Assembly (NCBI GenBank): GCA_027459745.1
Contig: DAIDHL010000008.1
Location: forward strand, 1 to 53,270
Reading direction: 5' to 3'
Source of the DNA: Candidatus Levyibacteriota bacterium
Lineage (GTDB): Bacteria; Patescibacteriota; Microgenomatia; Levybacterales; UBA12049
DNA length: 53,270 bases
The position numbers and the translations under genes are program-made. Of the stretch, positions 12,036 to 30,556 are shown piece after piece; the stretch's first letter is position 1, and each line of letters begins with the position of its first letter. The notes beneath the pieces were generated by a model. It saw only the letters and a program-made list of their open reading frames with translations, made no database searches and had not been told where the DNA came from.

Positions 12036-12437
12036 CTATTGCACATTAATATCAAAATCCTTGTTCTCATTCGTGCCATCTGGCATTGTGACTTGCGTTG
12101 AAATCTTCCAGGGTCCGCCCATTGAGAAATTTCCATCAGCTGCATATTGTCCATTACCTTGAGAAGTAGCACTTCCTTGCTGTGTACCCATATTCATACT
12201 TGTCATATTTAAGGTAAAATTAACCTTAGCATTATCGACTGACTTTCCGTCTTTATCTTTTACAGAAACGATCAGAGTTGTTTTGCCTGTACGTGCAGGA
12301 TTAGGATTGGTCAATAAACTTATATCACCATTTCCACTACCCGCTGTTCCAGAAGGATTTGTATTCACAACAAATACTAAAACAAATAAAATAATAACAA
12401 TTCCGGCTACGATTCCAAATAATACTTTGCTATTCAT
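12036..12437 (-). CDS. YtkA/FixH-like protein
   Basis: TM anchor, MTSMNMG, GQY...FSMGGPW. Confidence 0.75.
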   Translation of the reverse strand: MNSKVLFGIVAGIVIILFVLVFVVNTNPSGTAGSGNGDISLLTNPNPARTGKTTLIVSVKDKDGKSVDNAKVNFTLNMTSMNMGTQQGSATSQGNGQYAADGNFSMGGPWKISTQVTMPDGTNENKDFDINVQ

Positions 12438-12457
12438 ATCATCACCTCCTTTAAAAA

Positions 12458-13504
12458 TTAAGTTACATTAATAATCATCATCAGCCCACCCGGATCTTTA
12501 TGATCATTTGTTGTGTGATGTGAAATGTGACAATGTAGTAACCATTTCCCTGGTCGATCGGGTGTAAACTGAACGTCATAGCGCTCTCCAGGTCCTACTT
12601 CCACTGTATCTTTCATAATCTGAGCACTTTGTGGTACATCATTTCCATCTGTTGCAACAATTGTAAAAGGGAAACCGTGCAAATGCATTGGATGAATCAT
12701 TTGTCCTGTGCCAATGAATCGAAGTCTTACCAATTGTCCAACTTTTACATTCAGTTGTTGCGTCTCAGGATATGATTTCCCATTGATCGTAAAGAAATTC
12801 CCATCCATTCCTGTTGCTGGCATTGCAGCATACGTTTGCCCGTCGATAATTCGCCATTCATTAAGCATCAATACTTGATCAACATCTGGTTTTGGATTGA
12901 GTCCTCCTGGCGGATCAATTATAAAAGCACCTGATAGTCCAACAGACACCTGTTTATCAGGATTGAAATGGGAATGATACCAATACGTTCCTGCTGGTTT
13001 TGCCACAAACTCGTAGGTAAAAGATTGTCCAGGTTGAATTGGTTTTTGTGTTATGTCTGGTATGCCATCCATATTATTTGGAACTTGAATTCCATGCCAA
13101 TGAATAGTGGTTGGTTCTGGTAGTTCATTTTTTACAATAATGCGAACGTTATCACCCTCTGTAACGTGAATAAGTGGTCCTGGGACAGTTCCGTTATATG
13201 TCCAAGCAGTTGCTATTGTTCCTTTCACTATTTCCCAACGTATTGGTTCTGCGGTCAAATGAAATACTTTGGTAGTTCCATCCATAGTATATGGAAGTGG
13301 TTGTAGCCCTTGGGTTTGTGTTGCCATTGGAACTCCTTTTGCAGGAATTGCTTCCATTGCTTTTGCAGCATCAGAATTTTCATTTACTGTCGTTAATTGT
13401 GCGGGGGCTCCAGCTGTTCGATATTTGTTATATAACATGCCTGCTAAGACTACTCCAATAATAACGAAAAGAATAATAAATTTGTTGTAGAATTTTTGTT
13501 TCAT
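12458..13504 (-). CDS. Two-domain multicopper oxidase
   Basis: TIHWHG, WYHSH, HPMHLHG, HCHISHH...M; 348 aa. Confidence 0.9.
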   Translation of the reverse strand: MKQKFYNKFIILFVIIGVVLAGMLYNKYRTAGAPAQLTTVNENSDAAKAMEAIPAKGVPMATQTQGLQPLPYTMDGTTKVFHLTAEPIRWEIVKGTIATAWTYNGTVPGPLIHVTEGDNVRIIVKNELPEPTTIHWHGIQVPNNMDGIPDITQKPIQPGQSFTYEFVAKPAGTYWYHSHFNPDKQVSVGLSGAFIIDPPGGLNPKPDVDQVLMLNEWRIIDGQTYAAMPATGMDGNFFTINGKSYPETQQLNVKVGQLVRLRFIGTGQMIHPMHLHGFPFTIVATDGNDVPQSAQIMKDTVEVGPGERYDVQFTPDRPGKWLLHCHISHHTTNDHKDPGGLMMIINVT

Positions 13505-14205
13505 ATTGTTTGTAGATCTAAATCAATGATTGTCTTATAGACGTCAAATGGTTGATCACTACTGACTAATTTTGTATTGCCTCTACTATCAATTATAAAG
13601 GTTGCTGGCAATGCACTTGCTCCTGCATTTTGAGCATCATTTGCTTGATCTTGGATTGCTTGTACAAATTTCCCCGAGTCAAGACACTTCTGAAATGATG
13701 TATTGTATATTCCTAATTCTGCTGCCAATGGTGTTAACTTGGTTAACGCAAATCCAGTGCCACCTGAGTAACTTCTCCTAAAGATTATATCAGTATATTT
13801 CCAATACGTCGTATTTCCACCCAGAGAAGCAGCGCATTCTGACGCTTCTGCTTCTTTTTCAGCGTTTGCGTGTTGGAGTAACGGATAATTTCTTGTCACA
13901 AAACGAATTTTATCTCCGTAGGTTTGCATAATTTGTTTGATCGTTGGTTGGAACTGTTGACAGGAAGGACATTCCAGATCAGTATATTCAACCAAAGTTA
14001 TTTTTCCATTTAGGTTTCCTTTTATATGATCATTTTTTGAAATTGCCATAATTTTCCCAGCAGCTGCTTGCACTTTTCCTTGCAATTGCAGTTGTGCTTG
14101 TAATAGTGTAATTGATTGTGTTTTATCCATTGTTTGCACTTTCATATATAAAAACAGCAGTAACACCACAGAAAAAATGACGGCTATGAGCAATAATCGT
14201 TGCAT
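13501..14205 (-). CDS. DsbA/BdbD family thioredoxin-fold protein
   Basis: EYTDLECPSC, RNYPL, cis-Pro LP; N-terminal TM. Confidence 0.88.
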   Translation of the reverse strand: MQRLLLIAVIFSVVLLLFLYMKVQTMDKTQSITLLQAQLQLQGKVQAAAGKIMAISKNDHIKGNLNGKITLVEYTDLECPSCQQFQPTIKQIMQTYGDKIRFVTRNYPLLQHANAEKEAEASECAASLGGNTTYWKYTDIIFRRSYSGGTGFALTKLTPLAAELGIYNTSFQKCLDSGKFVQAIQDQANDAQNAGASALPATFIIDSRGNTKLVSSDQPFDVYKTIIDLDLQTI

Positions 14206-14213
14206 AATAAATT

Positions 14214-14738
14214 TTATTCTAAACTATCTTGTTTGCTAGCTAATGGTAATGCACATGCTTGTGTCGATTTTTGCTTGAGTAAATAGAAAAGAGAGCCACT
14301 AAGCATAATAATTGATATATACGGTAATTCTGCACCTTTAAATGGAAGAAAAGCGACACTGCCACTTAATCCAAGAAGGGAAAGCACTGGCAGCCCACAT
14401 GATGCACATCCTCCTCCTGCGATACTGAGTAGTGAGCTTCCACCAGCAACAATGCGAACTTTTCCCGATTGCTTGATTTGCTTCATTCTCGATCTGACAA
14501 CGGCAAAATTAATACCAATGAGCATGCCAGTAATAACCATGGTAATAAAACCAACTGCTCCCATCGTCGTCCAAAGTCCAATTGTTAAGGCAAAAAACAG
14601 TTGTAATTTATATTGTATCGGTGATTGTTCAAATATGGTCTCATTAATAATCACAATATTTCGAGCATAGGCGAGGACTAATAAGTAACTAAGGGTTATA
14701 AGGAAAATAAATAGCAAGGTTTGACGAGTAATGCGCAT
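14214..14738 (-). CDS. Membrane protein with GCASCG motif
   Basis: About 4 TMs, intramembrane CxxC, C-terminal Cys; lies between two dsbA genes. Confidence 0.75.
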   Translation of the reverse strand: MRITRQTLLFIFLITLSYLLVLAYARNIVIINETIFEQSPIQYKLQLFFALTIGLWTTMGAVGFITMVITGMLIGINFAVVRSRMKQIKQSGKVRIVAGGSSLLSIAGGGCASCGLPVLSLLGLSGSVAFLPFKGAELPYISIIMLSGSLFYLLKQKSTQACALPLASKQDSLE

Positions 14739-14743
14739 AGTAA

Positions 14744-15526
14744 TTATTTGCTCAACTCCTGATTCACAACAGTTTCTATTGCACTTAATGGTTGTGCACC
14801 AACTAGTTGTTTACCATTAATATAAAACGTTGGTGTGCCACTTACTCCTGCTTTTTGTCCTGCTGCAATATCATCTTGCATCTTTTTATCATCTGTTTTG
14901 TTATCCATACAACCTTTAAACTGAGTTGCATCCATGCCGAGTGTTCCGGCAATCTGTGAGAGATTGTCTGATGTATACATCGATGTATCGGTCTCTGAAG
15001 GTTGGTTTTTATACAAATAATCATGCATCTCCCAGAATTTGTTTTGGTCATTTGCACATTCAATTGCATTCCCAGCAACGAGAGATGCTGGACCTAAAAA
15101 TTCATATTGACGGAAGGCAAATGTCGCTTTTCCAGAATCGACATATTCTTTTATGAGTTGCGATTCAGTGTTATCAAAGAATTGTTTACAAAACGGACAT
15201 CGCATATCTTCAAATGCAACTATTTGGACTTTTGCGCCCGTAGTTCCCTTTATAGGAAAATGTCCATTATCCACTTGAACAATTGGAGGAATACCCGCTG
15301 GTGCGCCAGCTTGTGCACCTGCAACATTTTGTGTTGGAGCTGTTGCTGCCAAAGCTTTTGTATCAGATTGTAATTGTACTTTGGTTATAAACATACCAAG
15401 AAGAAATGAGGTGATAATAAGAGCAACAACGAGAAGTGGTGTATAGATATTCTGTTTCACTATTTCAGTAGTGGTTGTGACATCTGAATCTTGACTCTTT
15501 AGGTTTATTGAATGAAATTTTTTCAT
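14744..15526 (-). CDS. DsbA family protein
   Basis: FEDMRCPFC, GVSGTPTFYING. Confidence 0.9.
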   Translation of the reverse strand: MKKFHSINLKSQDSDVTTTTEIVKQNIYTPLLVVALIITSFLLGMFITKVQLQSDTKALAATAPTQNVAGAQAGAPAGIPPIVQVDNGHFPIKGTTGAKVQIVAFEDMRCPFCKQFFDNTESQLIKEYVDSGKATFAFRQYEFLGPASLVAGNAIECANDQNKFWEMHDYLYKNQPSETDTSMYTSDNLSQIAGTLGMDATQFKGCMDNKTDDKKMQDDIAAGQKAGVSGTPTFYINGKQLVGAQPLSAIETVVNQELSK

Positions 15527-15550
15527 ATCTCCTACATAGTGTAGGAGATA
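15526..15550. promoter_or_regulatory. BlaI-type operator over the dsbA RBS
   Basis: TATCTCCTACA-TAG-TGTAGGAGATA, 11-bp perfect IR. Confidence 0.75.
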
Positions 15551-15563
15551 ATTATTCTCTCTG

Positions 15564-16565
15564 TCAATATGTCACTTTATGCAATGGAGAAAATGGACGG
15601 GATACATTATCCGTTGAGTATGGAATCACATAAGGTTTGGCAATCGTGATATTTGTACACGAGTTAAGACATCCCTGTCCTTGCAAGCATACCATCATGA
15701 CGTCTTGGGTATGGCTATGGACTTCCATTGCATGAACTGGAATTATAAGTAAGAAGGTTAACACAACACTACTTGCAGTACTGATAAGAATTTTATTTAA
15801 ACTAAATCGATTATTGTAATGCTTTCCTGCTAATGCATAGATTCTTGGGAGAAGTGTATGTGCATCTCCAATTGACGTTGCTGTAGATAGTTGTAGAGAA
15901 GGAACAAGTAATAATTTTTTGAGTATAGTTGCAATAAATACATCTGTACCCATTGTCTTGATAGCTTGTCTATCAGCTGCTATTTCCCTTTGAATTTTAT
16001 ATGAGCGCGTATACTCATTAAGTATGGGAAAAAAAGGAAAAAGAAATGAAAGTGTATTAGCAATAAGCATAATACTACTATCTCGATGCTCAATATGATA
16101 TTTTTCATGGAGTACGATGGCTTCAAGTTCTCTTTTTGTCATCTGTTTTACAAGCGTTGAGGAAAGATAAATATTTGGTTTGATTATTCCAAAGCAAAAA
16201 GCAAATGTTTTACTACTTTGCACGATATAAGTACGGTTCCTTACCCCATATTTCTCAATAGATAGCAACATTCGATTTGTTGGAATTGCGTATCGTTTAA
16301 ATTCTTGTTTTAACTGGTGACTATGCCAAAGATACATGATAAATCGGATCAAACTATATCCACTAAAAGCTGACAACGTAATAAAAAGGATGATACTTAC
16401 CATATGGGGAAATTCCACTGTTGAAAAACCAAATACACGCTGACAGTAATAAACTGTATGTTCTAAAAAGAGAGGAAAATACTTTACTATGATTCTCCCT
16501 ACGGACAAGCTAAATACTATAAACAAGAGAGAAAATATGAGCAGATTTTTATTGATGTTTTTCAT
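15564..16565 (-). CDS. M56 family metallopeptidase (BlaR1-like, no penicillin-binding domain)
   Basis: AFCFG..KP.IY, HEKYH (HExxH), REIAAD; adjacent to blaI; start likely 16565 (track gives 16601). Confidence 0.88.
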   Translation of the reverse strand: MKNINKNLLIFSLLFIVFSLSVGRIIVKYFPLFLEHTVYYCQRVFGFSTVEFPHMVSIILFITLSAFSGYSLIRFIMYLWHSHQLKQEFKRYAIPTNRMLLSIEKYGVRNRTYIVQSSKTFAFCFGIIKPNIYLSSTLVKQMTKRELEAIVLHEKYHIEHRDSSIMLIANTLSFLFPFFPILNEYTRSYKIQREIAADRQAIKTMGTDVFIATILKKLLLVPSLQLSTATSIGDAHTLLPRIYALAGKHYNNRFSLNKILISTASSVVLTFLLIIPVHAMEVHSHTQDVMMVCLQGQGCLNSCTNITIAKPYVIPYSTDNVSRPFSPLHKVTY

Positions 16566-16929
16566 GTTTTTCAAGTATGTGCAACAATTCCTGTTTTTCA
16601 AGCTGGGGTAAGTTTTCTATACTTTCTGCAAACGATGCCATACCAGATGTTCCAAAAGATTCAAGATATTTTTTTAAAAATCCATCAACGACATTTCTCC
16701 CATAGGAGGCTTTCGTTATCTTTGCAGTAAACGTATGAGGAAATTTTATTATTTTTTTCTTTACAAATCCTTTTTGTTCGAGTCTTTGTAGAATTGTCCC
16801 AATCGTATTATATGCTAGTAACTTTTTTGAAGATTGTTTTTCCAACACATCACGAATTGAGACTTCGCCCTCCTCCCAGACGATATCCATGATTTCTAGT
16901 TCTAAATTACTAATTTCTTTATATGCCAT
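16549..16929 (-). CDS. BlaI/MecI/CopY family transcriptional repressor
   Basis: ISNLELEIMDIVW, LAYNTIGTILQRL..KG. Confidence 0.92.
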   Translation of the reverse strand: MAYKEISNLELEIMDIVWEEGEVSIRDVLEKQSSKKLLAYNTIGTILQRLEQKGFVKKKIIKFPHTFTAKITKASYGRNVVDGFLKKYLESFGTSGMASFAESIENLPQLEKQELLHILEKHEKHQ

Positions 16930-16947
16930 TCCTACATAGTGTAGGAA
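16929..16947. promoter_or_regulatory. BlaI-type operator (autoregulatory)
   Basis: TTCCTACA-TAG-TGTAGGAA abutting the blaI start codon. Confidence 0.78.
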
Positions 16948-16982
16948 AATACAATCAAAAGTGCAATAATGAATATACAGTT

Positions 16983-17474
16983 ATGAAACGTCATTGGGTC
17001 TTCCTATTAGTATTGTTTTGTCTTCTTGCAGTAATAACGATCTACTTTTCTTTTAAGATATCAAATCAGCAACTTTCGACAAAGGAAAATTCTCACATAC
17101 AAGTTCTTTCTCAATGTGTAACTGACGACCAAGCAAAAGAACATTATCATGTTAACCTGACACTTACTATCTTAGGAAAACCTGCTTTGCTACCCAATAA
17201 TTTAGGTATTGAAGATGGATGTCTGCATCCGATACAAGTCCACGATAATACTGACGGAACAGTCCATATCCACTACACAAAACCTTTTCCTTTTACCCTC
17301 GGAGACATTTTTTCGATCTGGGGAATGACCTTCTCAAAAAATCAATTCTCAGGATTTTTCTTTCCAGATAGATATCATATCAATCTTGTTATCAATGGGA
17401 AAGAAAATACACAATTTGAAAACTATATTCTCAAGCCTGATGATACGATTGCACTCACGATAACAAAAAAATGA
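16983..17474 (+). CDS. Membrane-anchored His-motif protein
   Basis: TM, HYH, CLHPIQVHD, HIH, FTLGDIF..WG; start likely ATG 16983. Confidence 0.7.
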   Translation: MKRHWVFLLVLFCLLAVITIYFSFKISNQQLSTKENSHIQVLSQCVTDDQAKEHYHVNLTLTILGKPALLPNNLGIEDGCLHPIQVHDNTDGTVHIHYTKPFPFTLGDIFSIWGMTFSKNQFSGFFFPDRYHINLVINGKENTQFENYILKPDDTIALTITKK

Positions 17475-17493
17475 GGTAATTTGATACAATACA

Positions 17494-18138
17494 ATGATGA
17501 ACGAGGCAGTAAAGCAAAAGTTAGAAATATTTTTTTCCGAATTCAAACATCTTACTTTTAAAAAAGGAGAGATACTTATTCGTGCCGATGATGATCCTGC
17601 GGGAATTTTTTATCTCAAACAAGGCACTGTTCGCCAGTATGCAATTTCCAAAGACGGTGAAGAGCAAACGTTAACCTTGTATAAACCAATTGCATATTTT
17701 CCGATGATGTGGGCAATGAACGATATCCATAACACCTATTATTTTGAGGCTCTCACCGATGTTGAAGTCTACAGAGCTCCGAGAGATGTTGTTTTAGAAT
17801 TTGTTAAAAAAGAACCTGATGTTTTGTATGATCTGACAAGCAGAATATATAGCGGAATGCATGGATTATTAACCAGAATGGAATATTTGTTATTTAGTAG
17901 TGCATATAACAAAATACTTTTTACAATTATGAATAATGCAACCAGATTTGGAACACAAGAATATGGTGAAGTTCATTTACATATGACGCATAAGGATATT
18001 GCAGCTTTCTCAGGACTCACAAAAGAAACAATCAGCCGTGAAATAAAAAAATTGGAAGAAAAAGGATTGGTGAAAAATCAAAATCAACTCATAATTATTA
18101 AAGATATAAAAATAATAGAGCAGGAGCTTTTAAGTTAA
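17494..18138 (+). CDS. Crp/Fnr family transcriptional regulator
   Basis: cNMP-binding fold plus HTH THKDIA...TKETISR; no Cys. Confidence 0.92.
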   Translation: MMNEAVKQKLEIFFSEFKHLTFKKGEILIRADDDPAGIFYLKQGTVRQYAISKDGEEQTLTLYKPIAYFPMMWAMNDIHNTYYFEALTDVEVYRAPRDVVLEFVKKEPDVLYDLTSRIYSGMHGLLTRMEYLLFSSAYNKILFTIMNNATRFGTQEYGEVHLHMTHKDIAAFSGLTKETISREIKKLEEKGLVKNQNQLIIIKDIKIIEQELLS

Positions 18139-18512
18139 CAACCACATTTACATTCAGAACAATTATTTGTTTTTGTAATAACTTCTTTTGTTGAGATAAT
18201 ACGATTCCTCTTTTTCTCATCATCTGGTAATCCGTTTGGCAATATATATCCTTGCCAATTACCATATCCGACAGACAATTCTAAATGAGGCTGATCAGTA
18301 AAATTTGGTTCTTTTTCTACATCATATAACCTGTATTTTCCCATTGATAACGTCGAATCAGCGTCATGAATTTTATGAGAAGTAACAAGAAGTTCGCCAA
18401 TATCTTTTGCATTTACCCATGAAAAGGTACTCTTATCGTCAAGTGTAAGAATTTTTGCTTGTCCCTTTGTTTCAATGAGTTTATAGTCTCCACGCTGCAC
18501 TACTTGTAGCAT
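18135..18512 (-). CDS. Hypothetical protein with Cys-rich C-terminus
   Basis: 125-aa ORF ending CSECKCGC. Confidence 0.65.
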   Translation of the reverse strand: MLQVVQRGDYKLIETKGQAKILTLDDKSTFSWVNAKDIGELLVTSHKIHDADSTLSMGKYRLYDVEKEPNFTDQPHLELSVGYGNWQGYILPNGLPDDEKKRNRIISTKEVITKTNNCSECKCGC

Positions 18513-18547
18513 ATAAACACATTACTATACCCGCAAATATTTTAATA

Positions 18548-18612
18548 ATGATCTACATCAACTCGATATGTTGATTTTCATCATTAGTAATCATCTTTTA
18601 ATTTCGGATAAT
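18548..18612 (+). promoter_or_regulatory. Tandem FNR-like boxes plus -10
   Basis: ATGATctacATCAA (18548), TTGATtttcATCAT (18571), -10 GATAAT (18607). Confidence 0.72.
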
Positions 18613-18626
18613 GGGCAAAGTTAATT

Positions 18627-19130
18627 ATGGAAGGGAAAAAGTTTATTATTTTAATCGCTGCAGCTACAATCCTTATTCTTTTTGGAGCAGTAATAGGACT
18701 ATCTGCATCATCTCAATCGCAGTCTCAAACGTCTGTATCTAAAAACGTAAAAGCAACGGTAAATGACCCGACGAGCTATGATTGGGGCACTATTCCTTAC
18801 AGTGGTGGAGTTGTAAGTAAAGACTTTACTATTAAAAACACCGGAACAGAGACCTTGAAACTCTTTAACATAAAAACATCTTGCCATTGCACAAAAGCGC
18901 ATCTCGCTATTGACGGGACAGCAAGTCCTGACTTTGGCATGGATAGTATGTCTGACTGGACTGGACTTGTACCTGCGGGAAAGGAAGCAAGATTAACAGT
19001 TGTTTTCGATCCAGCATTTCATGGACCATCAGGTATCGGACCAATAAATCGTTTCGTATCTGTTCAAACTAATTCTGCAGCTGATACTCAGCTGACATTT
19101 ACTTTAACTGGAACTGTTGTAAATAAATGA
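18627..19130 (+). CDS. DUF1573 domain protein
   Basis: YDWG.I, FTIKNTG..L, TSCHCT, FDPAFHG. Confidence 0.8.
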   Translation: MEGKKFIILIAAATILILFGAVIGLSASSQSQSQTSVSKNVKATVNDPTSYDWGTIPYSGGVVSKDFTIKNTGTETLKLFNIKTSCHCTKAHLAIDGTASPDFGMDSMSDWTGLVPAGKEARLTVVFDPAFHGPSGIGPINRFVSVQTNSAADTQLTFTLTGTVVNK

Positions 19131-19131
19131 C

Positions 19132-19971
19132 ATGGAAAACGTCTTATTTCAAACATCATTAATTGCTGCTTTTGTGGCAGGAGTTGTAGCGTTATTTGCT
19201 CCTTGCTGCATTTCTTTTCTTTTACCTGCGTACTTAGGTAATGTCTTCAAAGAAAAAGAGAAGGTGCTATTAATGACGCTCATTTTTGGTCTTGGCATCT
19301 TTATCGTTATGATGCCAGCAGTTCTGGGAGTGGCACTTCTTTCAAAAGCACTGTTTATCTACCACGACACGCTTTATACGATTGGCGGATTTGTCATGCT
19401 GGCAATTGCTGCTATTACATTCTTAGGACTGAAACTGCCTATGGTTTCTTTACCTGGGAGAGCAACACAAAAAACTGACCCTCTTTCAGTATTTATACTC
19501 GGTATTTTTTCAGGTATTACCAGTGCGTGTTGCGCACCAGTCCTGATTGGTATCCTCGCGCTGACTTTTCTTTCTCCAAACTTCTTTGGGGCACTTGGAA
19601 TTGGTGCAGTCTATGTTTTGGGTATGGTAACGCCACTTTTGGTTATTTCTGTCTTTTTATCAGGCAAGGCTGGAAAATTTGTTTTATTAAAGAAACCTAT
19701 TTTGCAATTTCACTTTTTAGGCAAAGAGAGAGTCCTCATTCTGAGTAATCTTATTGCAAGTATAATCTTTTTCATCACGGGTATTTTTATTCTCTATCTC
19801 AAGGCAATTGGTAGACTTGGCATGGGAGATGTCAATGGGTTTACCAAAGTTATCACAGGAGTTGAAAGCTATATGAATCATCTCGTAGGTAACAATCCTC
19901 TTCTCAATATTGCCTTTGTAGCACTATTAGCTTTTGTTATATACAAAATTGTAAAAAAAGGGATAAAATAA
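19132..19971 (+). CDS. CcdA/DsbD-type transmembrane thiol-disulfide transporter
   Basis: AFVAG...FAPCC...LPAYL and SACCAPVL. Confidence 0.85.
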   Translation: MENVLFQTSLIAAFVAGVVALFAPCCISFLLPAYLGNVFKEKEKVLLMTLIFGLGIFIVMMPAVLGVALLSKALFIYHDTLYTIGGFVMLAIAAITFLGLKLPMVSLPGRATQKTDPLSVFILGIFSGITSACCAPVLIGILALTFLSPNFFGALGIGAVYVLGMVTPLLVISVFLSGKAGKFVLLKKPILQFHFLGKERVLILSNLIASIIFFITGIFILYLKAIGRLGMGDVNGFTKVITGVESYMNHLVGNNPLLNIAFVALLAFVIYKIVKKGIK

Positions 19972-22685: not shown

Positions 22686-22688
22686 CCT

Positions 22689-23126
22689 ATGAATGAAAAT
22701 ATATATAAATCAATAACAAACGGCAGCGTAGCTGTCCTTATTCTTTTAGGAGTCTATATCGTTATCGTTTCTCTTGTCAGTGGATGGAATTTTATGCTGT
22801 TACAATTTTCTAAGTATTGGTACTACATTGGCTCATTGGCTGTGGGATTTGGCATCCAAATGGGATTATACACGTATCTTAAAAATGCTATGAGGAAGAA
22901 CGCTTCGCCTCATGTCTTGGCTGTTTCAGGGACAACGTCGACTGCTGCTATGATTTCATGCTGCGCTCATTATCTGGTTAATCTCCTGCCTATTTTGGGC
23001 ACGGTTGGTATTGTTACCGTTATATCTCAATACCAAATACAGTTTTTCTGGGTAGGAATACTATTTAATCTTGCCGGAATTTTATATATGATAAACAGAG
23101 TTTACAAATATACTCGCCAAATATGA
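22689..23126 (+). CDS. Membrane protein with SCCAH motif
   Basis: 4 TMs, GFGIQMGLY, AMISCCAHY. Confidence 0.75.
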   Translation: MNENIYKSITNGSVAVLILLGVYIVIVSLVSGWNFMLLQFSKYWYYIGSLAVGFGIQMGLYTYLKNAMRKNASPHVLAVSGTTSTAAMISCCAHYLVNLLPILGTVGIVTVISQYQIQFFWVGILFNLAGILYMINRVYKYTRQI

Positions 23127-23572
23127 AAACAAACAGACTCATTGTTCTTTGTATAGTTGTTGTCATAGCAGCTTTTCTTATCGTGGCAAAAGTTGGTAAT
23201 AATTCTCAAAACTCACAGAACAATAAACCATTACAAACAGCGGGAAACATGTTATCTCCACAAACAAACTCGGAAGGATCGGTCAGTATTACAGTAACTC
23301 CACAAATCTTAGGGAAAGGAAAATCAGCACAATTTGATGTCACATTTACGACACATATGGGCTCCCTTGATTTTGATCTCTTACAGATAACAAAGCTTGT
23401 GGATGATAAAGGTACTCTGTATAAACCTCTATCGTGGAGTGGAGGAAAAGGAGGACATCACCTGTCTGGAACATTATTATTCCCTTCTCTTTCGGAAAAA
23501 GCCAACAAAGTGACGCTTACTCTCTCCAGTATTGATAATATGGACAGAGTTTTCAACTGGGATTTGAAATAA
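23123..23572 (+). CDS. Membrane-anchored exported protein (TH...GGHH)
   Basis: TM, FTTHMGSL, GGHHLSG. Confidence 0.7.
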   Translation: MKTNRLIVLCIVVVIAAFLIVAKVGNNSQNSQNNKPLQTAGNMLSPQTNSEGSVSITVTPQILGKGKSAQFDVTFTTHMGSLDFDLLQITKLVDDKGTLYKPLSWSGGKGGHHLSGTLLFPSLSEKANKVTLTLSSIDNMDRVFNWDLK

Positions 23573-23578
23573 TCACAT

Positions 23579-24079
23579 ATGGAGATAAAAAGAAAATACA
23601 GCAAGCATTATGAAGAAAGTACTGTAATTAATGCTACTCCAGAGAATATATTTTCCTTTGCAAATGATCATAATAATTTTTCTTCCCATATGAATAAATC
23701 TTCGTGGATGATGGGTGGCGGAAAGATGGAGACTCAAGTTGACGATGGGAAAGGACAAAAGGTAGATTCACACATTCGAATGCATGGTAATGTATTTGGA
23801 CTAACCTTATTTCTTGATGAGATTGTTATCAAACATGAACCACCATACCGCAAAGAGTGGCAAACGATAGGGAAAATAAATCTCCTCGTTATTGATCATT
23901 ACAACCTCGGTTTTGAAATCGAACCAAAAGATAGTAATTCCCGACTGAGAGTATACATTGATTATAATCTTCCACAATCCGACGGAACTTATTTATTGGG
24001 TTATTTGTTGGGAGGAATGTACGCAAAATGGTGCGTTCATCAAATGATATATGGAGTAAAAGAGCATTTCAAGGTATAA
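23579..24079 (+). CDS. SRPBCC family protein
   Basis: INATPE.IF, HM..SSWMMGG. Confidence 0.7.
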   Translation: MEIKRKYSKHYEESTVINATPENIFSFANDHNNFSSHMNKSSWMMGGGKMETQVDDGKGQKVDSHIRMHGNVFGLTLFLDEIVIKHEPPYRKEWQTIGKINLLVIDHYNLGFEIEPKDSNSRLRVYIDYNLPQSDGTYLLGYLLGGMYAKWCVHQMIYGVKEHFKV

Positions 24080-24137
24080 ATCCAGCAAAGAAACTATCCT
24101 AAGAATAGCCGTAAATTACTAAATACTGACACTTCCT

Positions 24138-25034
24138 ATGAAAAAACCTGTTCTGTTTGCCACCATGCTGCTTCTCACCCTTATTTATGCATTCTGTTTT
24201 ACTGCAATTAAAGCTGGTCTTCCATTTCTCCCTCCATTACTGTTTGGTGGACTACGTGCGCTTCTTGGGGGCATAGTGCTTCTTCTGGTCGTAGGTTTTC
24301 TCAAGCAGTCGTTATTGCCGAAAAACCATGAGTGGAAATGGATCTTTTGGATTGGAGTAACCAGTACCATAACATACGTTGGCATGTTCTTAAGCCCGGG
24401 AAGAACGGGTGCTGGTATAGCCTCAATTCTTGGCAATTTATCACCGCTTTTTACCGTGCTCCTAGCGGCAATTGTATTACATGAAAAACTTTCTCATCGT
24501 TCTCTATTAGCACTTCTTTCAGGAATATTAGGCATACTCTTTATCTCTTACCCTGATTTATTTGGAGAAAATGTTTTTGGCATAACTGGGCTTTTTCTCG
24601 CACTTGCAGCATCAGGAGGAGCAGCAGCAAGTAATATTCTCGTGAAATATATGGGTAAGACGAATGCAATTATCCGAATCAGCGCATGGCAGCTTATTAT
24701 CGGCAGTTTTCCACTTCTGGCAATGTCTTTTTTTACCGAACAAGGAAAACCACTTGTCTGGAACAGCACAGCATTTGGTATTTTGCTGTTTTTGGGAGTA
24801 ATCGGGACAGCGTTTACTACGGCAGTTTGGTATCTTTTAATTCAATACTATAAAGTTGGCAAATTATCATTATTTCTTTTTCTTATTCCAGTTTTTGGTC
24901 TTGGCATAGCAGGAGTTGTATTCAGAGAGCCTTTGCACGGAAATGAATTGTTGGGAATCGGGGTAATCCTTTTTGCCACCCTACTTCTTGTGATTGATTC
25001 CTTAAAAATACGCCCTAGCCCTAGAGACAAATAA
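24138..25034 (+). CDS. DMT/EamA family transporter
   Basis: 10 TMs, duplicated EamA domains. Confidence 0.88.
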   Translation: MKKPVLFATMLLLTLIYAFCFTAIKAGLPFLPPLLFGGLRALLGGIVLLLVVGFLKQSLLPKNHEWKWIFWIGVTSTITYVGMFLSPGRTGAGIASILGNLSPLFTVLLAAIVLHEKLSHRSLLALLSGILGILFISYPDLFGENVFGITGLFLALAASGGAAASNILVKYMGKTNAIIRISAWQLIIGSFPLLAMSFFTEQGKPLVWNSTAFGILLFLGVIGTAFTTAVWYLLIQYYKVGKLSLFLFLIPVFGLGIAGVVFREPLHGNELLGIGVILFATLLLVIDSLKIRPSPRDK

Positions 25035-25048
25035 AAATTTCAATAGAG

Positions 25049-25113
25049 TTGATATACCTCAATAAAGGCGGATAACATACATCAACGTATTTTTCATCCA
25101 TACGGAGTACTAT
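25049..25113 (+). promoter_or_regulatory. Tandem FNR-like boxes plus -10
   Basis: TTGATatacCTCAA (25049), ATAACatacATCAA (25072), -10 TACTAT (25108). Confidence 0.65.
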
Positions 25114-25139
25114 CAGACTAGTTAGGAGGTGAGAGATAT

Positions 25140-25322
25140 ATGACAAATATTCTATTTGCGGTAGTAATTGCCCTTGCCTTTTATGGACTGTTGGTAAGTC
25201 TTGCTCATATGCCATTTTTCGCAACATTTTTGCTCATACCTTTACTGCTTTGTGGAGTAATGATGATGTTTATGATGGGGCATGGGGAAGATAAAAAAGA
25301 ACATACAGCCCATAAGCATTAA
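25140..25322 (+). CDS. DUF2933-like small membrane protein (second copy)
   Basis: RBS AGGAGGTG; LLLCGVMMMFMMGHG...HTAHKH. Confidence 0.7.
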   Translation: MTNILFAVVIALAFYGLLVSLAHMPFFATFLLIPLLLCGVMMMFMMGHGEDKKEHTAHKH

Positions 25323-25339
25323 TGTTACTTACAACTATT

Positions 25340-25353
25340 CCTACACTCTGTAG
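25340..25353. promoter_or_regulatory. BlaI-type operator upstream of a P-type ATPase
   Basis: CCTACA-CTC-TGTAG. Confidence 0.55.
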
Positions 25354-25385
25354 TAAAGAGTAATCGTATTGTGTTACAGTAAATT

Positions 25386-27614
25386 ATGGACGATAAATCT
25401 ATGACAATGAAAATGTATACCTGTTCCATGCACCCTGAAGTGCAACAAGAAAATCCTGGCTCATGTCCAAAATGTGGGATGAAGCTTGTTGAGACTGAAA
25501 TGAAAATGGATCACAATACAATGAAACATGGTGATCATGTCATGAAGCCAATGTCTCAAATGTCATTCTGGGATAAATTCAAATTGAGTATGACCATGAG
25601 CATGGGTATGGATCATACAGGCCTTGCTGGACGAGAAATGGCAAAACTGATGGAGACTGATATTAGAAACAAATTCTTTTTCTCACTCATTCTCACTATT
25701 CCAATCATTCTTTATTCTCCTCTTGGACAATTTATAGGAATCCATCTTCCCACTCCTCTTCCAGTTCAATTGATTCTTTTTCTCTTAACAACGCCTGTCT
25801 ATTTCTATGGTGGTTGGCTTTTTTTGTATTCTTCAATCCTAGAATTAAAACATCACAAATTGGGAATGTCTGTGCTTATCGCTGTCGGGATATCAACCGC
25901 ATATATTTTTAGTATTATTTTTAATTTCTTGGGAGGTTCTGATTCATTTTATGATGCTGCTGCAATGCTTATTACCTTTGTCTTGTTTGGACACTGGATG
26001 GAAATGAAATCTCGGCGTGGGACGACCGATGCGCTGCAAGCATTGTTTAATCTTGTTCCTCCACAAGCTAGACTCCTTAAAGACGGAAATGAAATACTTG
26101 TCTCGACAAGTGAAGTAACCATTGGGAATATTCTTATCCTTAAGCCGGGGGATAAAGTCCCGGTTGATGGAGAAATTGTCGAAGGCATAACAACCATTGA
26201 TGAATCACTCGTCACGGGCGAGTCTCTTCCTGTACAAAAGACAATTGGTGACAGCGTTATTGGAGGATCAATTAATCAGTCTGGATCAGTACGATTCAAA
26301 GCAATAAAAGTAGGAAGTGATACAGCCCTGGCACAAATTGTCAAAATGGTTGAGACAGCACAAAATTCAAAAGCTCCCGGACAGCGGCTTGCTGACCGCT
26401 TCGCAACCTATCTTGTCATTATTGCCGTTGGAAGTGGTCTCCTCACTTTTGGTGTATGGTTTCTTATACTTGGGCAACCATTGCTTATGGCATTAACGTT
26501 TGCGATATCCGCTGTTGTTATTGCCTGTCCTGATGCGTTAGGACTCGCAACACCTACCGCAGTTGCTGTTGGCACAGGACTTGGAGCAAAACACAATATT
26601 TTGATTAAAGATGCTGCAACTCTTGAACAAGTATCAAAAGTACAAGCAGTTGTTATGGATAAGACAGGGACGCTTACGGAAGGAAAACCGAAGATTACTG
26701 AAATAAAAACAATTACAGGCATATCGGAAAACGAGGCACTTCAGTTTATTGGCGCAGCAGAATCAAAATCATCACATCCCTTAAGTACCGCAGTACTCAC
26801 TGCACTTAAAGAGAAAAATTTATCAGTCCCAACACAGATTGAGAAATTTGAAAATTTAGCTGGACTGGGCGTAAAAGCAATAATAACTGGAAAAGTAGTA
26901 CTTGTTGGAACTGTTAAACTATTAGAAAAAGAACATATTGATGTTACACCACTTAGTGATCAGATAAATCTGTTTCTTATGAAAGGTGAAACCGTCATGG
27001 TACTTGCTGTGGATGGGAAAATTGCAGCAGTAGTTGGTGCAGCAGATCCAATAAAACCAACTGCTAAACAAGCAATTAATCGGATGAATGAGCTTGGTAT
27101 TGAGACTGCCATGATAACTGGTGATAATGAGAAAACAGCACAGGCAGTTGCTAAACAATTGGGTATTAAACGAGTTTTTGCAGACGTATTACCTGCTGAC
27201 AAGGCAAATTATGTTAAACAATTGCAGGATGAAGGAAGGTTTGTGGCAATGGTTGGCGATGGTGTGAATGATGCACCAGCCTTAGCACAAGCAAATATTG
27301 GTATAGCCATCGGAGCAGGAACTGATGTTGCCATAGAAACTGCAAAAGTGGTGTTAATGAAATCTGATCCAGCTGATATTTTGCGAGCGATAAAACTTTC
27401 TAAAGCTACTGTTCGAAAAATGAAGCAGAATCTTTTCTGGGCATCAATTTATAATGTGCTCGCTATTCCAATTGCAGCTGGCATTCTCTATCCTTCTTTC
27501 CATATCCTTCTTCAGCCAGAAATAGCAGCACTAATGATGAGTATTTCATCAATTATTGTTGCGACAAATGCGGTACTGTTAAATAGGGCGGAGAAGAGTT
27601 TAATCACCATATGA
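25386..27614 (+). CDS. Copper-translocating P1B-type ATPase (CPD variant)
   Basis: YTCSMHP...CPKCGM domain, TGES, IACPDALGLATP, DKTGT, HP, GDGVNDAP, YN, MSISS. Confidence 0.92.
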   Translation: MDDKSMTMKMYTCSMHPEVQQENPGSCPKCGMKLVETEMKMDHNTMKHGDHVMKPMSQMSFWDKFKLSMTMSMGMDHTGLAGREMAKLMETDIRNKFFFSLILTIPIILYSPLGQFIGIHLPTPLPVQLILFLLTTPVYFYGGWLFLYSSILELKHHKLGMSVLIAVGISTAYIFSIIFNFLGGSDSFYDAAAMLITFVLFGHWMEMKSRRGTTDALQALFNLVPPQARLLKDGNEILVSTSEVTIGNILILKPGDKVPVDGEIVEGITTIDESLVTGESLPVQKTIGDSVIGGSINQSGSVRFKAIKVGSDTALAQIVKMVETAQNSKAPGQRLADRFATYLVIIAVGSGLLTFGVWFLILGQPLLMALTFAISAVVIACPDALGLATPTAVAVGTGLGAKHNILIKDAATLEQVSKVQAVVMDKTGTLTEGKPKITEIKTITGISENEALQFIGAAESKSSHPLSTAVLTALKEKNLSVPTQIEKFENLAGLGVKAIITGKVVLVGTVKLLEKEHIDVTPLSDQINLFLMKGETVMVLAVDGKIAAVVGAADPIKPTAKQAINRMNELGIETAMITGDNEKTAQAVAKQLGIKRVFADVLPADKANYVKQLQDEGRFVAMVGDGVNDAPALAQANIGIAIGAGTDVAIETAKVVLMKSDPADILRAIKLSKATVRKMKQNLFWASIYNVLAIPIAAGILYPSFHILLQPEIAALMMSISSIIVATNAVLLNRAEKSLITI

Positions 27615-27775
27615 TTATACATAAATAGAGTAATTTTTTTAGGCTACAGTAGTAATAAATCAAGGACGTATTTATGTATACCTTCCTCTGGAGAGTATTA
27701 ATGGCAGGCCTGTTTTGAGAATCCTGAAACCTACAAAATAGCCGTTTATACCATTTTGAACTCGTCTTTTACTTA

Positions 27776-27823
27776 TTGACAAAATAATTTCATCTGCGTA
27801 CTATCTGAATAGATGCTCAAATA
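27776..27823 (+). promoter_or_regulatory. Promoter plus SmtB/ArsR-type operator
   Basis: TTGACA-N17-TACTAT; imperfect IR TATCTGAATA-GA-TGCTCAAATA overlapping the -10. Confidence 0.68.
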
Positions 27824-27828
27824 GATAA

Positions 27829-28200
27829 ATGCATAAAGATGTATTAGAACCAATCAACAAAGCTGCTGTTCAAAATGTACAGTTGCCACAAAAGGCAGTA
27901 TTTGATCATGTTGTGGAATGTTTTAAAGCATTGGGAGAAGGTACACGGGCAAAAATCCTGTATGCTCTGCAAGAGGAACCATTGTGCGTACGAGATTTAG
28001 CAATTGTTGTAGGTATTTCAGAATCAGGTATTTCCCATCAGTTGAGTGAATTAAAAGACAAACACTTAGTAAAAGTAGAAAGACAAGGAAACGTTATGTA
28101 TTACGCAATTGCTTATGAGCATCTATACAACCTTCTGAAAGAAGCAGAGTACTATGCGGATCATATAATCAGTGGTCATCCAGACCATCCAAAGAAATAA
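27829..28200 (+). CDS. ArsR/SmtB family metalloregulator
   Basis: FKALG..TRAKIL, LCVRDLA, SGISHQL, C-terminal His residues. Confidence 0.9.
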   Translation: MHKDVLEPINKAAVQNVQLPQKAVFDHVVECFKALGEGTRAKILYALQEEPLCVRDLAIVVGISESGISHQLSELKDKHLVKVERQGNVMYYAIAYEHLYNLLKEAEYYADHIISGHPDHPKK

Positions 28201-28202
28201 AT

Positions 28203-29123
28203 ATGAATAAAGCTATACCTAATGAACAAGAACATGGACATTCCCATGGGACAATAGATGCAACACTTTTTACTTCTCAAAAAGGTCTTCGCGCTGTAAT
28301 GTCTTCTTCAGTTATCCTTTTTGTTGGATCACTCTTTCAACTCGTTGTCGTATTGCTATCGGGGAGTGTGTCACTTCTCTCTGATACAATCCATAATTTT
28401 GGTGATGGTGCAACAGCAATACCGCTAAGTATTGCATTTCTTTTAGGACGTAAAAAACCAACAGTCCGTTTTAATTATGGCTATGGTAAAGCAGAAGATC
28501 TTGCTGGAGTTACCATTCTTATCTTCATGTTAGCAAGTGCTGCTTATGTAGCATATGTATCAATTGATCGTTTATTTCATCCATACACTCCAACCCATCT
28601 TTGGGTAGTAGCAATTGCATCTCTTGTTGGGTTTGGAATTAACGAAGGAGCTGCATGGTTTCGTATCAGGGTAGGAAAAGAAATTAAAAGCGAAGCGTTA
28701 ATTGCTGACGGGAAACATGCTCGTATAGATGGCATTACGAGTCTTTCTGTACTTATTGGTGCTTTAGGAACATATTTAGGGTATCCGATCGTTGATCCAA
28801 TTGTTGGACTCTGCATCACTGCTCTTATTCTTCATACAGTTTGGGAATCCGCAGGTCCTGTATTTACCAGATTATTAGATGGTGTAGATCCAGAAATAGC
28901 GCATCAAGTCAAACACGCAGTTGAAGAAGTAAAAGAGGTTAAAGAAATCGAATCTATTCATATACGTTGGTTAGGACATACGCTCTCAATAGAAGTAACG
29001 ATTTGTGTGGATGCAACATTAACTGTTGCACAGGGACATGCAATTGCTGAAGAGGTACATGGTGAATTACATGAACACTTCCCTCATTTAACCCATTTAT
29101 CTGTACATGTTGATCCGCACTAA
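28203..29123 (+). CDS. Cation diffusion facilitator (CDF) transporter
   Basis: HGHSHG, SDTIHNFGD, ADGKHARID, VHVDP. Confidence 0.92.
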   Translation: MNKAIPNEQEHGHSHGTIDATLFTSQKGLRAVMSSSVILFVGSLFQLVVVLLSGSVSLLSDTIHNFGDGATAIPLSIAFLLGRKKPTVRFNYGYGKAEDLAGVTILIFMLASAAYVAYVSIDRLFHPYTPTHLWVVAIASLVGFGINEGAAWFRIRVGKEIKSEALIADGKHARIDGITSLSVLIGALGTYLGYPIVDPIVGLCITALILHTVWESAGPVFTRLLDGVDPEIAHQVKHAVEEVKEVKEIESIHIRWLGHTLSIEVTICVDATLTVAQGHAIAEEVHGELHEHFPHLTHLSVHVDPH

Positions 29124-29148
29124 ATATACGAGTTCTGTTTGAAGAGAT

Positions 29149-29367
29149 TTAGTTATTTACTGGCACTGCATCATACCCTGCCTTTTTAATTGTTGCAATA
29201 ATTTCTTCTTCTGATATCTTTTGTGGATCAAATTCTACTTCTGTCTCTTGCTTTGCATAACTTGTTTTAGCTTCTTTTACTTTTTCTGTATCTTCCAATT
29301 CTCCATCTATATTCATGGCGCAACTTGTACAATGCATCCCTGTTATTTTAAATTTTTTCTTATTCAT
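29149..29367 (-). CDS. copZ: HMA-domain copper chaperone (CopZ-like)
   Basis: GMHCTSC, 72 aa, AGY. Confidence 0.85.
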   Translation of the reverse strand: MNKKKFKITGMHCTSCAMNIDGELEDTEKVKEAKTSYAKQETEVEFDPQKISEEEIIATIKKAGYDAVPVNN

Positions 29368-29374
29368 ATTAACA

Positions 29375-30535
29375 TCACCCCCTAATTACGTGTATCTCCC
29401 CCCGATACATTCCCATACTACACATAAATGAAATATCGCCAGGTTGACTCGGAGCAGTAAATGCAATCGTACCAGATGTTCCCATAGGTACACTTTTTTG
29501 TATACCCAAGCTTGGAATTGTGAACGTTTGTGTACATCCTTGTCCCCCTGTATTTGTTAAATGAAGAGTAATTGGAGTACCAGCTTTTACCGTTAAGTTA
29601 TTTGGGTTGTATCCACTTGCAGTAATTTCAACTTTTGCATCACTCACAGCATTTGCTACCGCAACTACCCCTGTATTACCGTTACATGTACTCACTATAC
29701 ACCAAACGGAAGTAAAAAAATTATCTAAGGTATACTTACTTCCCGTGAGTGCAAGCGCATTATTTGCATTATAGACAGCTAAAAGAATAATGGCATATGC
29801 TGCGAAACGCATAAATTTTTGGTTTAAAGAATCTCCTAATCTGGTCGCAAAATACCCAAGAAGGAAAAAAACAGGAGAAGTACCAAGAATAAAAGCAAAA
29901 AGAATTAATGCTCCAGTAATAGGCTTACCACTCGCAATAGCCAGTGCCATCATGGCTTGTGTAGTGCCACAGGGAATAAAGACAGTGAATGCGCCAAGAA
30001 GACCAGGAGCAAACATATCCTTACTTTTTGATTGTTTTCGAACGAGACGAGTCAAAAATCTTGGCGGCTGGATAACAAAATAACGAAAAATAGGATGGAC
30101 ATTTAAAATATTCAAGGCTGTTCCAACCATAAATATTGCTACAGCGAATTGGAGAATCGTTCGCAAAGTTAAAGATAACTGGAACGCTGAACCGAGAAAT
30201 CCTAGTAGTAAGCCAAGTAGTGTATAGGCAATAAGTTTTGCACCAAGAAATGTCAAAATTGGCATTGCAGAACCTGTTTTTACTTTGTCAGATAAACGCT
30301 CTTCTTCACGCTGTGCAATCGTTGCTGCAAGCAATCCTCCTTGTACTGCCATGCACGTGAGTCCTCCTGTGATAAGTCCTGTTAGGAAAATCGCCCAAAG
30401 ACTGGTGCTTCCGGTTGTTCCTCCGACTGATCCTGCAAATTGATTTAAAACTAATAACAATGCAATGACTCCAATAGAAGTAGCAACCGTTATTTTTAGA
30501 GTAGATTTTTTTATGCGTATTGTCGTTGTTTGCAT
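29375..30535 (-). CDS. DsbD_2/TauE-like membrane protein fused to a C-terminal cupredoxin domain
   Basis: GGLTCMAVQGG, FIPCG; C-terminal GY.PN, GC, FMCSMGMYRG. Confidence 0.8.
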   Translation of the reverse strand: MQTTTIRIKKSTLKITVATSIGVIALLLVLNQFAGSVGGTTGSTSLWAIFLTGLITGGLTCMAVQGGLLAATIAQREEERLSDKVKTGSAMPILTFLGAKLIAYTLLGLLLGFLGSAFQLSLTLRTILQFAVAIFMVGTALNILNVHPIFRYFVIQPPRFLTRLVRKQSKSKDMFAPGLLGAFTVFIPCGTTQAMMALAIASGKPITGALILFAFILGTSPVFFLLGYFATRLGDSLNQKFMRFAAYAIILLAVYNANNALALTGSKYTLDNFFTSVWCIVSTCNGNTGVVAVANAVSDAKVEITASGYNPNNLTVKAGTPITLHLTNTGGQGCTQTFTIPSLGIQKSVPMGTSGTIAFTAPSQPGDISFMCSMGMYRGEIHVIRG

Positions 30536-30542
30536 AGTGTCT

Positions 30543-30556
30543 CCTACATAGTGTAG
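30543..30556. promoter_or_regulatory. BlaI-type operator over the RBS
   Basis: CCTACA-TAG-TGTAG just upstream of the start at 30535. Confidence 0.7.

Follow-up and report, generated by a model that had tools for sequence, protein, structure and literature searches.

The window analysed here, a 53,270-nucleotide (nt) contig taken in full (contig C21), belongs to the 1.37 Mb, 22-contig genome of a Candidatus Levyibacteriota bacterium and carries a gene pair for a BlaI-like repressor and a membrane metalloprotease of the M56 family. On balance, the sequence comparisons and structure models favor the view that this pair forms a proteolytic switch of the BlaI/BlaR1 type, although without an antibiotic sensor, and that it governs a regulon for copper and disulfide defence of the cell envelope. 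To our knowledge, almost nothing is known about gene regulation in the Candidate Phyla Radiation (CPR)/Patescibacteria, which have not yet been grown alone. A preliminary description of the window, made from its sequence, had cautiously read the BlaI/M56 pair as the control of a copper or thiol-redox regulon through proteolytic signalling, and all computational tests that we ran agree with this reading, as far as sequences and models can tell.

A proposed palindromic operator is embedded in the promoters

Exact matches to CTACANNNTGTAG occur four times in the window, at 15532-15544, 16932-16944, 25341-25353 and 30544-30556, and thereby confirm at all four places the CTACA-N3-TGTAG palindromes with a 3-nt spacer that had been reported in the preliminary description. 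The expected number of such sites was 0.06 and none of 100 shuffles reached four, while a scan that allowed up to one mismatch returned the same four sites only. Genome-wide the pattern was found eight times, as compared to zero for the control in which it was read backwards, and when the spacer between CTACA and TGTAG was varied from N0 to N7 the counts were 0, 2, 4, 8, 3, 2, 0 and 0, showing that N3 is the enriched spacing. Of the eight genomic sites, six fall within promoters that serve BlaI/M56 modules or copper genes: all four sites of the window, a site ahead of a second blaI (contig C11) and a site ahead of dsbA on C19. The remaining two are intragenic, within long open reading frames (ORFs) on C1 and C22. 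The dyad has the consensus (A/C)CTACA-N3-TGTAG(T/G), and at two of the sites in the window the palindrome continues beyond the core, giving ATCTCCTACA-TAG-TGTAGGAGAT with 11-bp arms at operator 1 (15527-15549) and TCCTACA-TAG-TGTAGGA at operator 2 (16930-16946).

The position of the dyad relative to promoter elements was analyzed for 47 unique boxes, which came from this genome together with the 28 closest named loci and were oriented by the downstream gene. In gene orientation the left half-site reads TACAAT in 25 boxes and TACACT in 19, with 3 boxes deviating from both. A T occupies the centre in 46/47 boxes, a bias that a purely symmetric site would not show. A TTGnnn element was found at a spacer of 17-18 nt in 41/47 boxes, as compared to 5/47 and 4/47 at shifted control spacers. 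The start codon usually follows 1-9 nt past the box, and lies at most 9 nt past it in 34 of the 47. The copper ATPase gene is an exception with its 32-nt leader, and a leader of identical length precedes the HMBD-ATPase of one relative (L040). These patterns indicate that the left half-site is probably the -10 box and that transcription probably starts within the operator, giving transcripts that are leaderless or nearly so. The sites had earlier been described as mostly overlapping the ribosome-binding site or the start; the start codon is indeed close by, but the boxes are better read as containing the -10 hexamer and the start of transcription. With the -10 box inside the operator, bound repressor would keep RNA polymerase off the promoter.

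The repressor is a BlaI-like protein without cysteines

The repressor gene encodes a PF03965 protein of 126 residues, none of which is a cysteine, and MecI chain 1okr matches it with an E-value of 1.1e-7. Its best NCBIfam match is TIGR02698 (CopY/TcrY), with 39.2 bits vs a cut-off of 121.95 and over residues 5-88 only, and the NCBIfam models for BlaI/MecI likewise stayed below threshold (28-35 bits vs cut-offs of 180-250). Phe100 is invariant in 16/16 aligned repressors and aligns with the Phe of MecI LVLNFVEK and BlaI LVLNFAKN. BlaI and MecI are cut at the Asn-Phe bond that aligns to this position.

The recognition helix differs between paralogues of the repressor. Those encoded on C21 and C11 have A-Y-N-T-I-G-T, and the one on C19 has, together with relatives, A-Y-T-T-(I/V)-A-T. 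Concurrently, the blaI boxes of C21 and C11 are flanked by CC/GG in place of AC/GT, and the boxes before the ATPase gene and before DsbD_2-copZ are of hybrid type, combining a flank of either kind. This gives a hint of co-variation of repressor and site, and of shared control at the hybrid boxes. Taken together, the conserved dyads make it very likely that a BlaI paralogue represses the four promoters in the window.

The M56 protease is predicted to have the BlaR1 membrane and protease fold and an outward-facing module

The ORF of the protease extends to a TTG at 16601, but its start is most likely ATG 16565, as the N-terminus from there is conserved in relatives; with this start the gene and blaI have 17 nt in common. 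In the public gene call the protein has 279 amino acids (P0003) and lacks the first membrane helix and the invariant loop cysteine. The protein contains the zinc-protease motif HEKYH, a loop cysteine (C41) and a tail with H278/H283/H285, M290/M291 and C293/C299/C303. In an alignment of 18 proteases H153, E154, H157, C41 and C124 are invariant and C303 is kept in at least 90%, the first loop is conserved as Y-Y-C-Q and the tail follows the consensus P-V-(H/Q/Y)-A-x-E-x-H, four residues, D-x-x-M-x-C and then C-x3-C. Of the 149 best representatives examined, 120 are full-length proteins; all 120 have HExxH, 86 the Cys triad and 37 A-x-E-x-H.

A penicillin-binding sensor domain is absent from the protein by Pfam, and the chain ends about 55 residues past the last helix; the blaR1_generic model reached 35.5 bits vs a cut-off of 400. 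The lack of this domain and the His/Met/Cys tail had both been pointed out before, and Pfam and the translation agree with this, just as the repressor, said to lack the C-terminal Cys motif of CopY, proved to have no cysteine at all and to fall below the cut-off of the CopY model. The AlphaFold2 (AF2) model of the protease (pLDDT 79.3, pTM 0.74) consists of helix 6-34, a beta-hairpin at 37-51 that contains Y-Y-C-Q, helix 54-91, the protease domain and a last helix at 256-274, after which the tail forms a second hairpin (278-293) and a short helix (297-304). Its best solved fold match is the transmembrane (TM) and protease part of S. aureus BlaR1 (8exq_A, E 5.1e-7; 8exr_B, TMt 0.50). We read the charge distribution as placing the loop and the tail outside the cell, and from topology and conservation we infer a zinc protease domain in the cytoplasm and a small outward-facing module made up of the first loop and the tail of about 30 residues (H-A-x-E-x-H, M-M, C-x5-C-x3-C).

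A model of the complex between BlaI and M56 obtained a score of 0.61, as compared to 0.00 for the best of three controls. The 0.61 mark is reached by 116/157 solved complexes and by 2/215 mismatched pairs, a yardstick that is only rough here as our own alignments were used. The runs share at least 75% of the contacts and the pLDDT of the partner is at least 75. In the modelled interface residues 73-126 of BlaI face residues 77-92, 115-125, 163-170 and 207-248 of M56, which supports docking of the BlaI C-terminal domain on the predicted cytoplasmic protease domain.

The module is repeated in the genome and conserved among relatives

The genome contains exactly three PF03965 genes and three M56 genes over cut-off, each in an adjacent pair, and behind each pair come a DsbA-like gene and a paralogue of a CxxC membrane protein. 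The protease tails of C21 and C11 have H-A-M-E-x-H...V-M-M-V-C-L-Q-x-x-G-C-x-x-x-C in common. The two further modules, on other contigs, suggest divided or redundant sensing.

With the M56 protein of the window as query, matches at E <= 1e-10 were found in 22/151 genomes sampled from the same order, this genome included, and a profile of the protein matched 15/401 genomes sampled from the phylum at E <= 1e-15. An exhaustive profile search returned 554 representative clusters at E <= 1e-30, out of 67,031 M56-like proteins at E <= 0.001. By its named records, the clade is represented in Levybacteria, Gottesmanbacteria, Woesebacteria, Collierbacteria, Daviesbacteria and WWE3, and the layout box-blaI-M56-box-dsbA-(DsbD_2::cupredoxin-copZ) recurs in Levy-, Gottesman- and Woesebacteria and in WWE3. 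Many records (L052, L053, L057, L058, L060 and others) come from metagenome-assembled genomes titled 'uncultured Gammaproteobacteria bacterium', but have loci of the type found in Levybacteria and their kin and match genomes from the order of the window; they look mislabelled.

Gene content at the 28 closest named loci was compared by tblastn with that at 52 more distant loci. The counts for close vs distant loci are as follows: BlaI 28/28 vs 41/52, DsbA-like 27/28 vs 5/52, DsbD_2::cupredoxin 24/28 vs 2/52, CopZ 18/28 vs 2/52, the ATPase 15/28 vs 4/52 and the multicopper oxidase 4/28 vs 0/52. A motif scan near homologues had been proposed as a check on the operator, and at least one exact box is found in 27 of the 28 close loci, within 120 nt past the M56 stop in 20 and upstream of blaI in 23, so that the box is conserved both in position and in sequence. 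Pfam searches of 131 ORFs, from 18 loci in 15 related genomes, confirmed the gene assignments and added small cupredoxins, DUF3105, DsbB, sortases and redoxins to the genes seen at these loci.

The boxed operons carry genes for copper and thiol-disulfide chemistry

The genes behind the four operators are given in Table 1. The list drawn up in the preliminary description (dsbA operon, copper ATPase, cupredoxin fusion-copZ) was borne out by Pfam, and so was its remark that no beta-lactamase is nearby: no beta-lactamase or penicillin-binding protein (PBP) family was found by Pfam among the ORFs scanned in the window, and PF13354 has no match on this contig, its sole match over cut-off in the genome being C19:49022 with 25.6 bits. 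The boxed ATPase matches TIGR01511, the copper P1B-1 subfamily, with 585 bits vs a cut-off of 397; its sixth TM helix has CPD, not CPC or CPH, and YN..P and MxxSS are kept. A small Met/His-rich DUF2933 protein is encoded at 25140-25322 and ends 18 nt before operator 3.

Table 1. Operators, genes and operons in the window.
Feature	Position	Strand	Remarks
Operator 1	15527-15549		Between M56 stop and dsbA start; TTGACA, 18 nt, TACACT; ATG 5 nt past core
Operator 2	16930-16946		Inside blaI promoter; gene strand TTGCAC, 17 nt, TACACT; ATG 2 nt past core
Operator 3	25341-25353		32 nt upstream of ATPase start; hybrid, CC flank left and GT flank right
Operator 4	30544-30556		Gene strand TTGTAA, 17 nt, TACACT; ATG 8 nt past core
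blaI-like repressor	16549-16929	-	126 amino acids; PF03965 77.1 bits vs cut-off 22.6, residues 6-120
M56 membrane metalloprotease without sensor domain	15564-16565	-	333 amino acids from ATG 16565; PF05569 64.4 bits vs cut-off 31
Operon behind operator 1	12036-15526	-	Five genes (Pfam); gene gaps 6, 9, -3 and 21 nt
DsbA-like	14744-15526	-	First gene behind operator 1 (Pfam)
174-amino-acid CxxC membrane protein	14214-14738	-	Without known family
Second DsbA-like	13501-14205	-	Pfam
Two-domain multicopper oxidase	12458-13504	-	Pfam
YtkA-like	12036-12437	-	Pfam
orf163, 163-amino-acid membrane-anchored protein	16983-17474	+	Divergent from blaI; without known family
Copper-type P1B ATPase	25386-27614	+	Behind operator 3; HMBD, Met/His-rich N-terminus
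Operon behind operator 4	29149-30535	-	DsbD_2::cupredoxin membrane fusion (29375-30535) and HMA chaperone CopZ (29149-29367); Pfam
csoR-copA operon	31315-34716	-	Outside the regulon; csoR-like (34432-34716), orf172, cupredoxin-like, CopA (31315-33543), then PIG-L

Three small proteins of the window, of 174, 163 and 172 amino acids, gave no Pfam or NCBIfam family, and for the 174-residue protein the Atlas returned clusters without names. The latter is a CxxC membrane protein (about 170-190 residues, G-x-C-x-x-C-G) that comes after the DsbA-like gene in all three modules (Table 1; C11:223148-223657; C19:24126-24692), and could serve the DsbA-like protein as a redox partner in the membrane. Another set comprises three paralogous membrane-anchored proteins of about 160-170 residues with His-rich motifs, orf163 of Table 1, 33908-34426 (-) and C11:220400-220882 (-), of which two are divergent from a blaI box and one lies within the csoR-copA operon. 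They may be copper-handling proteins of a new kind. Operator 2 is also 38 nt from orf163, which is possibly co-regulated through it. Between the boxed operons an ArsR/SmtB-type regulator and a CDF transporter gene (27829-29123, +) are found without a box, and with a second CDF gene at 45383-46249 (-) the metal island also has a zinc-type circuit.

Proposed mechanism and alternatives

We propose that a dimer of the BlaI-like repressor would bind (A/C)CTACA-N3-TGTAG(T/G), as the conserved dyads in the promoters suggest, and would shut four promoters: those of blaI-M56, of the operon for dsbA, the CxxC protein, the second dsbA, the multicopper oxidase and ytkA, of the HMBD copper ATPase and of DsbD_2::cupredoxin-copZ. 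Copper in the envelope and/or thiol oxidation caused by copper would act on the outward Cys/His/Met residues of M56 and activate the protease, which would cut the repressor near the invariant Phe100 in the dimerisation domain; the cut repressor would then leave the DNA and the regulon would be expressed. That M56 relieves repression by cutting the repressor we consider likely. That copper itself is the cue is about as likely as not.

Several observations weigh against this scheme. The residue before Phe100 is Ser, His or Tyr, where BlaI and MecI have Asn (P1), and the confident contacts in the complex model, where a passing score means model confidence and not binding, do not include Phe100. 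The tail of the protease is modelled with moderate confidence only (block means 58-72), and its last 26 residues are disordered. The protease subtype of C19 and L047 keeps the Cys triad without the His and Met residues and without adjoining copper genes. Since three BlaI paralogues with similar boxes are present, the pairing of repressor and box is ambiguous. At one of the 18 loci of relatives, L041, a class A beta-lactamase is encoded four genes downstream of the box (L041:5573-6511, PF13354 1.7e-46). Gene association can moreover not separate copper from thiol stress, and the DsbA-like gene is the most constant neighbour (27/28). Finally, the tallies overstate independence, as the genomes compared are kin and some of the named loci are duplicate records.

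The same wiring could have the thiol-disulfide state of the envelope as its cue, with C41 and the tail triad as a redox switch, for example as a DsbA substrate, and with the copper genes riding along because copper damages thiols; the system would in that case act as a feedback loop on oxidative protein folding. We regard this as unlikely, although a good deal fits it. The DsbA-like gene is the first behind the box in all three modules of the genome and present in nearly all close loci, thioredoxin-fold or redoxin genes also follow the more distant M56 clade (L043, L044, L046, L049), C41 is invariant, the Cys triad occurs more often than A-x-E-x-H (86 vs 37 of 120), and the tail of C19/L047 is cysteine-only with no copper genes nearby. 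On the other hand, boxes in the window stand directly before the copper ATPase and before DsbD_2::cupredoxin-copZ, away from dsbA, and the copper genes are specific to the close clade (24/28 vs 2/52). Also, the tail of the main clade has His and Met, which are typical copper ligands, and the sole studied relative, PetR/PetP (see below), responds to copper. A more far-reaching version, which we hold to be doubtful, makes the M56 family, with its four conserved outward-facing cysteines, a dedicated sensor of envelope disulfide status: its cysteines would be kept oxidised by the DsbA under its own control and upset by copper or reductants, the three paralogues of the genome would divide the cues, with His/Met tails reading copper and the Cys-only tail the thiol state, hybrid operators would integrate both, and the copy in the window would travel as cargo of a conjugative element. 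If true, the module would amount to self-contained feedback control of oxidative protein folding, with a coupling to copper defence. It is improbable that, with the repressor still in control of these promoters, M56 answers some other envelope signal (misfolded exported proteins, another metal such as Ag, Zn or Hg, or a cue from the host) or simply breaks the repressor down constitutively; the ArsR-CDF pair between the boxed operons (27829-29123) could point that way, but it is without a box, and the content of the regulon is overwhelmingly related to copper and thiols.

Two further explanations are both highly improbable. The palindrome could act as an RNA hairpin, as a translation block or terminator, and not as a DNA operator, and sites 1 and 2 do fold well (-14.7 kcal/mol with z -5.8 for site 1, -10.1 with z -2.9 for site 2), so that the region next to the start codon is buried. 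Sites 3 and 4 are however no better than shuffles (z +0.84 and -0.53), and as only sites 1 and 2 beat them, a hairpin as the common function was ruled out. In addition, with the -10 in the left arm the transcript would start after this arm and lack it, as judged from the orientation bias (46/47) and the -35 spacing, and what is conserved is the TACA/TGTA core that characterises dyads of the BlaI family, adjoining a BlaI gene. In a read-through transcript from M56, the palindrome at 15527-15549 could cover bases by the dsbA start, a possible second layer of control at this site only. An ordinary BlaI/BlaR1 system that senses beta-lactams or the cell wall would fit the family membership of the pair and the beta-lactamase gene of L041. 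It was rejected because M56 has no penicillin-binding domain, with a blaR1_generic score of 35.5 vs 400 bits, and because no beta-lactamase was found on the contig and just one of the 18 loci of relatives has one.

Relation to known systems

Of the systems known, PetR/PetP of Synechocystis sp. PCC 6803 (Garcia-Canas et al. 2021) is the closest, a likeness that is drawn from descriptions, not from sequences. There, degradation of a BlaI-type factor without cysteines needs the protease and copper (PMC7896320; bioRxiv 10.1101/2020.07.31.226407). The two genes overlap, PetP is an M48/M56 protease that lacks the beta-lactam sensor domain and any C-terminal extracytoplasmic domain and has two loop methionines that are conserved, the petE promoter has the inverted repeat GACA-N3-TGTC, and the regulon comprises petE, petJ, slr0601 and slr0602, which brings about the plastocyanin/cytochrome c6 switch (bioRxiv 10.1101/2020.07.31.226407). 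As far as these accounts go, the system in the window shares with PetR/PetP a BlaI/CopY-family factor that lacks the cysteine site of CopY, a sensor-less M56 protease encoded by an overlapping gene, an N3 inverted repeat, its overlap with core promoter elements at repressed promoters and a link to copper. The differences are in the half-site (TACA here vs GACA), in the regulon, which here covers copper export and oxidation and exported thiol-disulfide oxidoreductases in four operons as compared to four genes, and in the protease, where the CPR protein has the conserved Cys-triad/His/Met tail and a loop cysteine and PetP has loop methionines. PetR also activates, whereas the system in the window shows no sign of activation. 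PetR/PetP is a published copper-dependent BlaI/M56 switch, so the principle is already known.

The copper repressors CopY, CopR and TcrY of Firmicutes, for which the operator TACANNTGTA is reported (PMC7253601), have the repressor family, the TACA/TGTA dyad and the control of a copper ATPase and chaperone in common with the window. CopY senses copper by a C-terminal Cys cluster, however, whereas the repressor in the window has no cysteine, the spacer is N3 here vs N2, and here a membrane protease is the partner. With BlaI/BlaR1 and MecI/MecR1 (1okr, 1sd4, 8exq) the pair shares the repressor fold, the aligned Phe, the TM and zinc-protease fold and, as in BlaI/BlaR1, an apparently autoregulated repressor-protease operon with TACA/TGTA dyads. 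Unlike BlaI/BlaR1, it has neither a penicillin-binding domain nor a beta-lactamase or PBP2a target and misses the NCBIfam cut-offs, and its protease model has two membrane helices and a hairpin before the protease domain, unlike BlaR1. By sequence, the pair belongs to the broad PF03965 and PF05569 families and fails the defining features of both CopY and BlaR1. Copper-responsive repression of a copper ATPase, which is proposed for the window, is also known from CsoR-CopA, but CsoR has an unrelated fold, is a cytoplasmic Cu(I) sensor with a C/G-rich operator and serves the CPC-type CopA, not the boxed genes. In the literature searched on BlaI, BlaR1, CopY, PetR/PetP and copper in CPR/Patescibacteria we found no description of the system, the PetRP supplements, which may bear on pairs beyond cyanobacteria, having been outside this search.

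A parallel CsoR circuit and the mobile context

The csoR-copA operon next to the regulon has no CTACA box, as judged from the window scan with up to one mismatch. Its CopA is canonical, with CPC and an HMA domain (31315-33543). A C/G-rich dyad of CsoR type lies ahead of csoR on C11, and the csoR start in the window has a degenerate version of it. By these sequence features, cytoplasmic Cu(I) appears to be handled separately by the adjacent CsoR-CopA circuit, and as cytoplasmic Cu(I) already has this sensor, it would fit that the BlaI/M56 switch reads an extracytoplasmic cue. A composite element was observed twice on C22 (C22:2824-2853 and C22:5413-5443), in which ATATCCCCC(A/AA)GGGGA is followed by CTACA-N1-TGTAG; it resembles a CsoR-type dyad adjoining a shortened TACA/TGTA dyad.

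The metal island is flanked on one side (1164-9092) by genes for a serine recombinase, a KAP NTPase, a TrwB/VirD4-like coupling-protein ATPase and Replic_Relax, and on the other (35162-40352) by genes for two pilin-domain proteins of a type IV secretion system, PrgI-like, TraC/VirB4-like and TraG P-loop proteins and an M23 peptidase. Since these are genes of a conjugative element, the copy of the regulon in the window is probably its mobile cargo.

Implications

The system described here offers a complete, conserved and testable circuit in the CPR, with a proposed sensor, repressor, operator, promoters and regulon. The operator embedded in the promoter gives direct evidence on promoter structure and on probable leaderless transcription in these organisms. 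With CsoR-CopA next to the proposed BlaI/M56 switch, these small genomes appear to keep two parallel copper circuits, and the tail of about 30 residues together with one loop is a candidate for a compact extracytoplasmic copper/thiol sensor. If confirmed, the protease-based copper switch would extend past the single studied cyanobacterial case, and from cofactor economy to the defence of the envelope against copper and disulfide stress.

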